Positions 6,240 to 6,743 of a DNA stretch of 43,050 nt are shown piece after piece (position 1 is the stretch's first letter; every line of letters starts with the position of its first letter). Both the position numbers and the translations under genes were made by a program. A model generated the notes under the pieces. The model worked only from the letters and a program-made list of their open reading frames with translations. It searched no databases and was not told where the DNA came from. Location of the stretch: the NCBI GenBank assembly GCA_964575755.1, contig CAZNRH010000001.1, positions 181,347 through 224,396 of the forward strand, written 5' to 3'. The DNA comes from an uncultured Candidatus Saccharibacteria bacterium. Lineage in GTDB: Bacteria; Patescibacteriota; Minisyncoccia; Phycocordibacterales; JABMNX01.

Positions 6240-6743
6240 ATGACTGACACAAAGGTAGCTGACAAATCAAAAAAAGAAGCATCAGAAAAGCCTAAATTAG
6301 AGGTTAAGAAGACCGTCGATTCTTCGCAAAGAATCGCTCCTGATGTCTCGCAAGACATCATGTCCACAGACCGTGGCAACATTAAGGAACCAAAGAAAAT
6401 AATAAAAGAAACTGAAAAAACTTCAGAGTTTGCTGTTATTAAGACAGGGGGGAAGCAATACGTTGTTTCTGTAGGTGACGTATTAACTATTGAAAAGCTT
6501 GACGGTGACTTCAAAGAAGGGGACAAAGTAACCTTCGATAAGGTTCTGCTTGTAGACAACGGTAAAGATACAACAACTATCGGAACACCTTTTATAAAAG
6601 GAGCTAAAGTAATAGGCTCATTTCAAGAAACAGGAAAAGGGAAGAAGATTCACGTAATCCGATTTAAATCAAAAAGCCGTTACTTTAAAAAGTACGGACA
6701 TCGACAACCTTACACAAAGGTAAAAATCGAAGCACTTAAATAA
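6240..6743 (+). CDS. rplU: 50S ribosomal protein L21 with a ~63-aa Lys/Glu-rich N-terminal extension
   Basis: The core FAVIKTGGKQYVV..GD.....L.......V.FDKVLLV ... RFK.K.RY.KK.GHRQPYTKVKI is canonical L21. The extension carries two in-frame hairpin modules. Confidence 0.9.
   Translation: MTDTKVADKSKKEASEKPKLEVKKTVDSSQRIAPDVSQDIMSTDRGNIKEPKKIIKETEKTSEFAVIKTGGKQYVVSVGDVLTIEKLDGDFKEGDKVTFDKVLLVDNGKDTTTIGTPFIKGAKVIGSFQETGKGKKIHVIRFKSKSRYFKKYGHRQPYTKVKIEALK
6318..6359 (+). repeat. two in-frame 18-nt hairpin modules (GATTCTT-CGCA-AAGAATC and GATGTCT-CGCA-AGACATC) inside the L21 N-terminal extension
   Basis: Both are perfect 7-bp stems with a CGCA loop (6318-6335 and 6342-6359). They encode DSSQRI and DVSQDI and are followed directly by ATGTCC. 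Confidence 0.85.

Follow-up and report, generated by a model that had tools for sequence, protein, structure and literature searches.

A modular palindromic repeat carried in frame by ribosomal protein L21 and other housekeeping genes in a lineage of Patescibacteria

The 43,050-nucleotide (nt) stretch of DNA analyzed here (the window) derives from an uncultured Candidatus Saccharibacteria bacterium (contig CAZNRH010000001.1, positions 181,347 to 224,396; GC content of the organism 37%). The organism, Paceibacteria/Kaiserbacteria-like in character, belongs to the Patescibacteria or candidate phyla radiation (CPR), whose genomes are tiny, streamlined and usually poor in repeats. Two small hairpins located in frame in the gene for ribosomal protein L21 are copies of a multi-copy, modular palindromic repeat made of units of about 24 nt joined head to tail. 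We consider it probable that this family is a lineage-specific selfish repeat of the kind represented by repetitive extragenic palindromic (REP) sequences and Rickettsia palindromic elements (RPEs), and that its copies have been filtered by translation. The feature is real and not the product of chance, its kind is already known, and an earlier reading of the window made from its letters without database searches (the sequence-only reading) was correct in essence.

The sequence-only reading placed two 18-nt hairpins in the N-terminal extension of L21. They are indeed found there, GATTCTTCGCAAAGAATC at 6318-6335 and GATGTCTCGCAAGACATC at 6342-6359 on the forward strand, both in frame in the open reading frame (ORF) 6240-6743, where they encode the peptides DSSQRI and DVSQDI. 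The CGCA loop given by that reading stands, and its stem of 7 base pairs (bp) becomes one of 8, because the flanking bases also pair (C with G or T with A) and extend the hairpin to the form YGATNNNT-CGCA-ANNNATCR. The pattern GATNNNTCGCAANNNATC occurs five times in the window and not once in 100 dinucleotide-preserving shuffles. The remaining three perfect copies, on the reverse strand at 33396, 33420 and 33579, repeat the architecture, as had been noticed, in the N-terminal tail of a D-alanyl-D-alanine (DD-) carboxypeptidase and the C-terminal tail of ScpB. In all five perfect copies the variable triplets (NNN) are exact reverse complements, as claimed: TCT with AGA, GTC with GAC, TCC with GGA and, twice, ATT with AAT. 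Folded as single-stranded DNA (ssDNA), these hairpins have free energies (dG) of -4.5 to -6.8 kcal/mol (z -3.7 to -5.9), and the two-hairpin RNA fold of the L21 array has z = -3.0. The picture of isolated hairpins did not survive. Unit starts lie 24 nt (8 codons) apart and ATGTCC-NN-AGAC follows the last unit, which makes each hairpin one module in a longer repeat. A sixth window unit (core 33546-33563, reverse strand), TCT-TCGCAA-GAC-ATC, is chimeric, with a TCT-type left arm and a GAC-type right arm; its triplets are not complementary and it forms no hairpin (dG -1 kcal/mol, z = 0.2). The copies and their host genes in the window are as follows.

6240..6743, forward strand: host gene for ribosomal protein L21 (ORF and PF00829); the element lies in its lysine-rich N-terminal extension
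6316..6399, forward strand: insertion of 84 nt (28 codons, in frame) that the sister L21 lacks, edges accurate to within a few nt (DNA alignment)
6317..6336, forward strand: L21 hairpin unit 1, CGATTCTT-CGCA-AAGAATCG, triplets TCT/AGA, outer pair C-G, 8 bp (as ssDNA dG -6.8 kcal/mol, z = -3.7)
6341..6360, forward strand: L21 hairpin unit 2, TGATGTCT-CGCA-AGACATCA, triplets GTC/GAC, outer pair T-A, 8 bp, starting 24 nt past unit 1 (as ssDNA dG -6.6 kcal/mol, z = -4.7)
6362..6371, forward strand: foot mini-hairpin GTC-CACA-GAC after the last L21 unit
32397..33485, reverse strand: host gene for D-alanyl-D-alanine carboxypeptidase, Peptidase_S11 at residues 104-340, with the element in the N-terminal tail before a hydrophobic segment
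33419..33438, reverse strand: DD-carboxypeptidase unit TGATATTT-CGCA-AAATATCA, triplets ATT/AAT, peptide DISQNI (dG -4.5 kcal/mol)
33395..33414, reverse strand: DD-carboxypeptidase unit TGATTCCT-CGCA-AGGAATCA, triplets TCC/GGA, peptide DSSQGI (dG -6.5 kcal/mol)
33360..33394, reverse strand: foot and polar tail in DD-carboxypeptidase, TGTCC GGAGAC CAAGACCAGGACGTTAAGCAAGAA (peptide MSGDQDQDVKQE)
33495..34148, reverse strand: host gene for ScpB, SMC_ScpB at residues 19-173, with the element as C-terminal tail
33578..33597, reverse strand: ScpB-tail unit TGATATTT-CGCA-AAATATCA, triplets ATT/AAT
33545..33566, reverse strand: degenerate 'bulged' ScpB unit GGATCATCT-TCGCAA-GACATCA, peptide GSSSQDI
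33498..33544, reverse strand: ScpB foot and polar tail up to the stop codon (peptide MSGDQSATQETADSEA)

Collection scans confined the family to a narrow set of sequences. A scan of one genome per species with the pattern TCGCAANNNATCATGTCCNNAGAC, in which the entire left arm is left unspecified, returned eight matches in a single metagenome-assembled genome (MAG; CAZVBS01) and two in Vampirovibrionales. We rejected the latter as chance matches: they have a GC content of 0.48, no GAT foot and stems of only about 4 bp, and they lie inside a conserved gene (ksgA-like, judging by one motif) with a left triplet that is complementary by chance. A metagenome scan with both triplets free (pattern GATNNNTCGCAANNNATCAYGTCY) gave 54 matches. 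On low-GC contigs of VAPL01 and VAPM01, which come from the same project as the MAG and as the twin contig of the window (L001), the triplets were fully complementary in nine of 11 matches and had one mismatch each in the other two; on unrelated contigs (GC 0.27-0.70) full complementarity was found in two of 43. Viral contigs held two chance matches only, non-complementary and at GC 0.60-0.61. The complementarity seen in the first copies thus persists in the additional ones, and this contrast, together with the count of five against none in shuffled sequence, rules out a chance origin. The family, with copies in the VAPL01/VAPM01 contigs and MAG CAZVBS01, is restricted to this lineage. A profile of the three window peptide copies (34 positions) found no family among 1.84 billion representative proteins in a search of low sensitivity, its sole return being an unrelated protein with EDVSQRLT repeats, and Rfam 15 gave no match at gathering score over the whole window. 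At least 20 loci are present in the roughly 135 kb fetched from two sister genomes, most of these loci on the basis of a motif match (fetched loci are cited here by their L numbers); unselected stretches contain three loci in the 43-kb window and two in 30.7 kb of syntenic MAG contigs.

The unit can be written out as (A)CGTC-TGATNNNT-CGCA-ANNNATCA-TGTCC. It has an invariant foot (Y-GAT...ATC-R), a self-complementary variable triplet, a T-A closing pair, a C-N-C-A loop and a YGTCY spacer. One to several units, always head to tail in direct orientation and repeating every 24 or 33 nt, are followed by a GTC-CNNA-GAC mini-hairpin that is almost invariant behind terminal units, and often by a polar tail (..CAAGACCAGGACGTTAAGCAAGAA), for inserts of 33-102 nt overall. 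The tail type of DD-carboxypeptidase recurs after the arrays of S1 (L010) and RF1 (L038) and partly in those of FtsH (L009) and UvrD (L003). Pairing of the mini-hairpin foot is weakly hinted at by its variants CGTC/GACG and CGCC/GGCG. A unit-profile search of the fetched loci recovered 34 distinct units, with loop variants (TCT, TCA or TCC followed by CAA; also CGCG) and further complementary triplets (TCA/TGA and TTC/GAA). There is also a 'bulged' form, YGAT-CA-NNNT..ANNN-ATCR, and there are chimeric units (TCT with GAC, TCC with GAC, TTC with TGA, ATC with GGA) whose breakpoints fall inside the shared loop. The composite DISQNITSKDGSSSQDI of the window ScpB is present in L009, L054 and L038 as well. 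Overall, a few discrete variants reappear at many loci in two genomes, and this recurrence, together with chimeras joined in the loop, suggests that copies derive from a limited pool of variants and that units slip or recombine with one another. A second type of hairpin, with the same CGAT..ATCG foot, a longer stem and another loop, was observed ahead of a standard unit at two loci: in LepA at L006 6790-6815, in another codon phase (CGATTTCATC-CGAA-GATGGAATCG, with one G.T pair), and in L008 at about 2055-2075 of the reverse strand (GATTT-CAACGA-AAATC).

The alignment of 27 distinct unbulged units (alignment A1) reveals that the stem varies by compensation. Standard pairs are formed at 96.8% of positions, changes occur on both sides in five of the eight stem pairs, and four stem positions, the outer pair among them, carry two or three different Watson-Crick pairs each. 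The covariation score was 0.437, compared to 0.184 when the 3' letters were shuffled (none of 500 shuffles as high) and to 0.16 or less when the 3' partners were slid by 1-3 columns. The outer pair (U-A in 21 units, C-G in five, with one exception) links the last base of the preceding codon with the first base of the following codon; since it spans two codons, amino-acid constraint cannot produce its covariation. These multiple Watson-Crick pairs, the codon-spanning outer pair and the low controls bear out the earlier argument that selection on the protein cannot explain the linked codons. Pairing was also kept where the peptide changed: in the change of TCG CAA to CCG CAG (Ser to Pro) the closing pair is preserved as C-G, and a sister copy in PepA with the loop CGCG (SQ to SR) is a perfect 22-nt palindrome. 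From the covariation we infer selection on the hairpin. The sequence-only reading had gone as far, and its covariation is confirmed, but the same pattern would be expected from the copying of a few master variants, from gene conversion or from correction by template switching.

Coding copies were found at 13 loci, in every one of which the unit reads D-x-S-(Q/R)-x-I in one and the same frame. Four of the six frames of the unit are open, of which those not used would yield peptides with much Cys, Phe, Arg or Trp. The hosts and the positions of the element in their proteins are listed below; L21, DD-carboxypeptidase, ScpB, PepA, S2 and LepA were confirmed by Pfam or by a match to a solved structure, and FtsH, S1, SecD, UvrD, IF3 and RF1 were named from motifs read in their translations.

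Window: L21, N-terminal tail
Window: DD-carboxypeptidase, N-terminal tail
Window: ScpB, C-terminal tail
L006: LepA/EF4, insert of 34 amino acids (aa) precisely between residues 71 and 72 of a solved EF4
L009: FtsH, extracytoplasmic loop
L010: S1, N-terminal tail
L027: SecD, P1 head
L003: UvrD/PcrA, C-terminal tail
L054: IF3, C-terminal tail
L038: RF1, C-terminal tail
L038: S2, C-terminal tail
L068: ScpB of the sister genome, C-terminal tail
L068: PepA, N-terminal tail

Six of the 13 hosts (L21, S1, S2, IF3, RF1 and LepA) are ribosomal proteins or translation factors, a share noticed post hoc, for which high expression, a tolerance of disordered tails and chance are candidate explanations. Non-coding copies occur in L002, L003, L005, L007 and L008 and in an array downstream of RF1 in L038. 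The solitary intergenic copies have conserved flanks of their own (ACGTC..AGACCRACGTCC). All coding copies and four of the five solitary intergenic copies are in sense orientation; the copy in L007 is antisense to both neighboring genes and lies beyond the terminator of the upstream gene.

The distribution of stop codons separates coding from non-coding copies. Variants that create TGA (the TCA/TGA triplet, and the bulged unit with a T-A outer pair) are confined to sequence outside ORFs, with the exception of the stop of RF1, whose gene (L038 3148-3843) ends in the TGA of a TCA/TGA hairpin unit. The array on the 3' side of RF1 (L038 2934-3215, reverse strand) contains three 33-nt units, flanked on both sides by more units of 24 and 33 nt. 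It has TGA where coding copies have GGA (Gly), and its bulged unit has the outer pair T-A (TGA TCA TTC..) and makes a better hairpin, at a position where coding bulged units have CGA (Arg, C-G outer pair) or GGA (a mismatch). This is the distribution expected from the joint constraints of hairpin and open reading frame. The replacement of GGA by TGA raised the question of genetic code 25 in L038, which we rejected as unlikely: in-frame TGA is absent from the S2, EF-Ts and RF1 genes there, and in the window the ftsW gene terminates with TGA. The TGAs downstream of RF1 are better explained as hairpin-improving changes tolerated outside the ORF. As to stop codon usage in the window, its 28 confident genes end in TAA (20), TAG (7) and TGA (1); TGA is strongly avoided as a stop, and the single TGA, that of ftsW, overlaps the start of murG.

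The constancy of the frame at all 13 coding loci is what could be expected if D-x-S-Q-x-I-M-S-G-D were a functional peptide module, for example a disordered spacer or a short linear motif, taken up by many proteins, with the palindromy of its DNA incidental. Loop changes in coding copies are moreover mostly synonymous for Ser-Gln (TCG, TCT, TCA or TCC with CAA), and the composite with the broken hairpin is kept at four loci. We nevertheless hold this explanation to be very unlikely. One x is I, S, V, F or L and the other is N, G, D, R or E, the two being linked by codon complementarity alone; the covariation of the outer pair crosses codon boundaries; SQ-to-SR and S-to-P changes keep pairing; and the hairpin is retained in non-coding and stop-containing copies. 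The profile search, furthermore, uncovered no protein family. Hosts place the peptide in the cytoplasm and also outside the membrane (the FtsH loop and the SecD P1 head), and its occurrence in unrelated hosts on either side of the membrane argues against a single peptide function.

Comparison with a sister genome provides a direct view of turnover. The closest relative of the window L21 (P0002) is encoded by MAG CAZVBS01 on a contig syntenic with the window at 6-16 kb, which identifies this MAG as the sister genome. The L21 alignment of window and L066 (MAG CAZVBS010000018) contains a single clean gap of 84 columns, which places the insert at about 6316-6399. Identity is about 85-90% over the first ~80 aligned columns, covering the 5' untranslated region and the first ~13 codons, and the ~40 columns beside the gap are more diverged. 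Comparison with L21 orthologues had been proposed as a check, and it reveals that relatives do have the N-terminal extension and that the segment from DSSQRI to DVSQDI is missing from all of them. The sister DD-carboxypeptidase measures 335 aa and is devoid of hairpins, compared to 362 aa in the window. Conversely, the MAG PepA carries a 33-nt single-unit insert, GGCGATTCCTCGCGAGGAATCGCGCCCAAAGGC, the smallest seen, which is not present in the window PepA. The ScpB genes of both genomes have arrays at the same site with different variants; four pairs differ and both hairpins are perfect, the first unit being tGAT-ATT..AAT-ATCa in the window and cGAT-TCC..GGA-ATCg (CGATTCCT-CGCA-AGGAATCG) in the MAG. 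More distant ScpB proteins of Paceibacteria have no array and end in ...KEIDQFEKEQKEYVE. Four paired differences at this level of divergence point to replacement or conversion from another copy rather than to stepwise compensation. These comparisons show that copies were gained, lost and exchanged between loci since the split of the window organism and the sister MAG. At the L21 and PepA junctions no target-site duplication could be defined against the empty sites, where divergence limits resolution, and comparison of the 5' and 3' ends of the element gave no terminal inverted repeats.

Such turnover bears on the proposal that the hairpins are dual-coding functional RNA elements in mRNAs, through which an RNA-binding protein or RNase would tune the stability or translation of a group of genes related mostly to translation. 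A regulon element is expected to be conserved, whereas occupancy of the essential L21, PepA and DD-carboxypeptidase genes differs between sisters. The element also has no fixed place in the mRNA, lying internally or at either the 5' or the 3' end, one copy (L007) runs antisense to its neighbors, Rfam offered no match, and translation, rather than RNA function, accounts for the strict frame and the avoidance of stops within ORFs. An explanation of this type would account for the sense orientation of all coding and most solitary copies, for the conserved C-N-C-A loop and foot, for RNA folds that beat those of shuffled sequences (z -1.5 to -6.2), and for the six hosts that are ribosomal proteins or translation factors. 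Mismatches attributable to single substitution, and not to chimeric arms, in the stem interior are G.T (G.U in RNA) and never A.C, but three cases (L003 3532, L003 3561 and L006, first hairpin) are not enough to count as evidence. On balance, we judge a function of the hairpins as RNA elements to be unlikely.

Likewise unlikely, in our view, is a neutral coding tandem repeat in low-complexity tails, made palindromic by quasipalindrome correction through template switching, altered by slippage and spread by occasional illegitimate recombination, with neither dedicated mobility nor selection on the hairpin. Much of the anatomy of the arrays would follow from such a process, including their head-to-tail arrangement, their period of 24 or 33 nt and variable copy number, the breakpoints of chimeric units in the shared loop, and arms as perfectly symmetric as those that result from template switching. 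The lack of any transposase, terminal inverted repeat or target-site duplication (in the 135 kb and at the L21 and PepA junctions) is also in its favor. However, the same composite is inserted cleanly inside the conserved LepA (71/72), SecD and FtsH proteins, and also in unrelated genes, which makes some copy-and-insert process hard to avoid. Solitary intergenic copies with their own conserved flanks, and the same discrete variants at many loci in two genomes, are further facts that it does not explain. A dimeric-protein operator was also considered and rejected; its degenerate half-sites do not require a self-complementary NNN in each copy.

The selfish repeat filtered by translation that we favor would operate as follows. 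The element would spread as DNA, in either orientation and any frame, and the genic copies that survive would be those in surface loops or terminal tails, with lengths in multiples of 3 nt and in the one stop-free frame that gives a polar, probably disordered peptide (D-x-S-Q-x-I-[MTV]-S-x-D). The hairpin would persist because propagation or copy correction requires it and not because a host protein does, the requirement being set by an enzyme that recognizes ssDNA hairpins or by template switching or gene conversion between copies. Slippage or recombination at the TCGCAA loops that units share would then change array length and generate chimeric units. Note that GC skew changes sign at ~17-19 kb of the window, where cumulative skew peaks (near 18 kb) and genes are convergent, a region that looks like a replication terminus. 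Given the flip at ~18 kb, the sense strand of all window copies is the putative lagging-strand template, a placement confounded with gene orientation; it is one that an enzyme acting on hairpins in single strands would favor.

Several observations weigh against this reading. A tblastn search of the 135 kb recovered no ORF resembling IS200 or a REP-associated tyrosine transposase (RAYT), with an approximate IS200 TnpA sequence as query; a single marginal match has no Y1_Tnp domain, and Pfam found no transposase in unannotated ORFs. This is a weak test, the 135 kb being a minor part of both genomes. Neither target-site duplications nor terminal inverted repeats could be defined. In-frame REPs of other bacteria use several frames, and the exclusive single frame could point to a functional peptide or to a frame-preserving mechanism. 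The concentration of six of 13 hosts in translation might point to a function. Units are arranged head to tail, while CGTC REPs are mostly head-to-head dimers. Finally, the broken 'KDGSSSQDI' unit is nonetheless found at four loci. The array might also be more than selfish DNA, a dual-coding module recognized, as RNA or ssDNA, by a lineage-specific hairpin-binding factor, which we rate as quite unlikely. In one version the factor could co-regulate mostly genes of the translation apparatus (L21, S1, S2, IF3, RF1 and LepA). In the other, a new copy-in mechanism, independent of transposase and preserving the frame, could act on the module in organisms with very small genomes.

The window contains other repeats. 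An element of ~120 nt is present in four copies with a mean column identity of 80%.

1799-1924, forward strand: ~120-nt element
4613-4740, forward strand: ~120-nt element
12976-13102, forward strand: ~120-nt element
~36380-36505, reverse strand: ~120-nt element

It has terminal inverted repeats of ~24 nt (ATGAATCCCGTACGAAATCACGGACAC ... GTGTCCTATTTCGTACGGGATGAA), its right end provides the start ATG of the downstream gene (those for a P-type ATPase, RmuC, L9 and PepA), and it is not found upstream of PepA in the sister MAG; it may be a MITE-like element (MITE, miniature inverted-repeat transposable element) or a promoter or leader cassette. A terminator-like hairpin, AAATGCCCCAAGTACCTGGGGCATTT, occurs three times in the window (23654-23679, 38867-38892 and 42919-42944) and in near-identical form in the sister MAG (L007 ~2040-2075). 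A 189-nt direct repeat (83% identity; 27826-28014 and 28264-28452) in the gene for a 1321-aa surface protein (26230-30195) with Ig-like and Peptidase_S74 domains is probably a duplicated domain repeat.

The family is of interest for several reasons. It is an unusually clear-cut case, with strong stem covariation, one frame, and stop variants confined to non-coding copies, and two syntenic sisters from one sample set differ in the genes that it occupies. Its inserts lengthen the tails of ribosomal and other housekeeping proteins, so that some of the 'N-terminal extensions' of CPR proteins can be selfish DNA, and they can mislead alignments, phylogenies and annotation. How CGTC REPs and RPEs move is an unsolved problem, with no transposase known for either. 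Two tiny sister genomes that differ in occupancy could help to solve it, and in so small a genome, where the family was active until recently, few enzymes come into question.

In-frame small palindromic repeats are known from Rickettsia, Opitutus and sphingomonads, among others; Patescibacteria/CPR constitute a new host group, and our literature search found no such repeats reported from them. PARCELs, the coding palindromes of nematomorph mitochondria and RPE-1 are looser analogues. MITEs differ by terminal inverted repeats, of which none were seen here, and by target-site duplications, which could not be defined at the diverged L21 and PepA junctions. GTAG REPs, REPINs and the RAYT system (PMC2817692, PMC3116915) are similar in their small hairpins, their compensatory stem variation and a strand-specific hairpin plausibly recognized as ssDNA, whereas our element has no GTAG tag and no inverted REP doublets, and the weak test of 135 kb brought no RAYT to light. 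PARCELs are also tandem intragenic repeats of dyad-symmetric coding DNA, with variable copy number and shuffled within genomes, but theirs is an amphipathic unit of 25 residues (~75 nt) in ORFs of unknown function or surface proteins, and ours is a polar unit of eight residues inserted in conserved housekeeping proteins. The coding palindromes of nematomorph mitochondria (PMC6649704) resemble it as perfect inverted repeats kept in translated genes by a compromise between structure and coding; in contrast, they reach 284 bp, their arms encode conserved native protein, and they form no dispersed inserted family.

The sequence-only reading likened the hairpins to Rickettsia palindromes and contrasted their size. 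The direction of this analogy was right and the contrast needs adjusting, RPE-4 and RPE-6 and the CGTC and GTAG REPs of similar size being catalogued in PMC3733652. RPE-1 (Ogata et al. 2000, in the account of PMC10969869) is alike as a selfish palindrome in frame in many unrelated essential genes, with a conserved peptide tolerated on protein surfaces and a presence that differs between related genomes. RPE-1 is one long palindrome of ~100-150 bp, compared to units of 24 nt and a smallest insert of 33 nt here, and it belongs to a different host phylum; the likeness is one of description.

The closest counterparts are the CGTC REPs, family CGTC-1 (Di Nocera et al. 2013, PMC3733652). In that survey, REPs carry a GTAG or CGTC tag, and the CGTC group, with no dedicated transposase known, includes RPE-6 and RPE-4 of Rickettsia conorii and dRS3 of Neisseria. 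Its members have stems of 8-9 bp, loops of 4-5 nt and the tag at one end, often as TGTC or CCTC. In-frame intragenic copies include VIPAKAGI in R. conorii and ~70 in Opitutus terrae, and those in housekeeping genes are 8-30 aa long, often at protein ends. Differences are several. Our stem starts with T/C-G-A-T and that of CGTC REPs with complementary A-T residues at its first two positions (compared by description); our tail is TGTCC with GTC-CNNA-GAC and theirs 'CCA'; head-to-tail arrays, which our 24-nt units form, are termed 'negligible' for CGTC REPs in the survey, where head-to-head dimers are the rule; our element is AT-rich; most of its copies seen are coding and in one frame, and known intragenic REPs use several; and its host, a patescibacterium (Paceibacteria), is not among the phyla reported there.

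The tag motif matches in part. An unpaired CGTC/TGTC motif abuts the stem in part of the units; the four bases on its 5' side are CGTC in seven units of alignment A1, TGTC in four and other sequences (ATTC, TTGA and others) in 16. On the 3' side, YGTCY adjoins the stem in 19 units of the 27 and lies one base further in the other eight (units with a C-G foot and one mismatched unit). ACGTC stands on the 5' side of the solitary intergenic copies of L003, L005 and L007, and within arrays the tag is indistinguishable from the spacer of the neighboring unit. The TCC/GGA variant shares an ATTCC..GGAAT core with CGTC-1 as back-translated from VIPAKAGI (GTC ATT CCC GCG AAA GCG GGA ATC, our own back-translation and not a published consensus). 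To these are added a small palindrome as unit (stem of 8 bp and loop of 4 nt in all perfect copies), compensatory stem variation, subfamilies, copies scattered over at least 20 sampled loci, in-frame copies in housekeeping genes and no known transposase. Membership of the CGTC super-family is not established, and the resemblances indicate that the element works like a REP or a small RPE.

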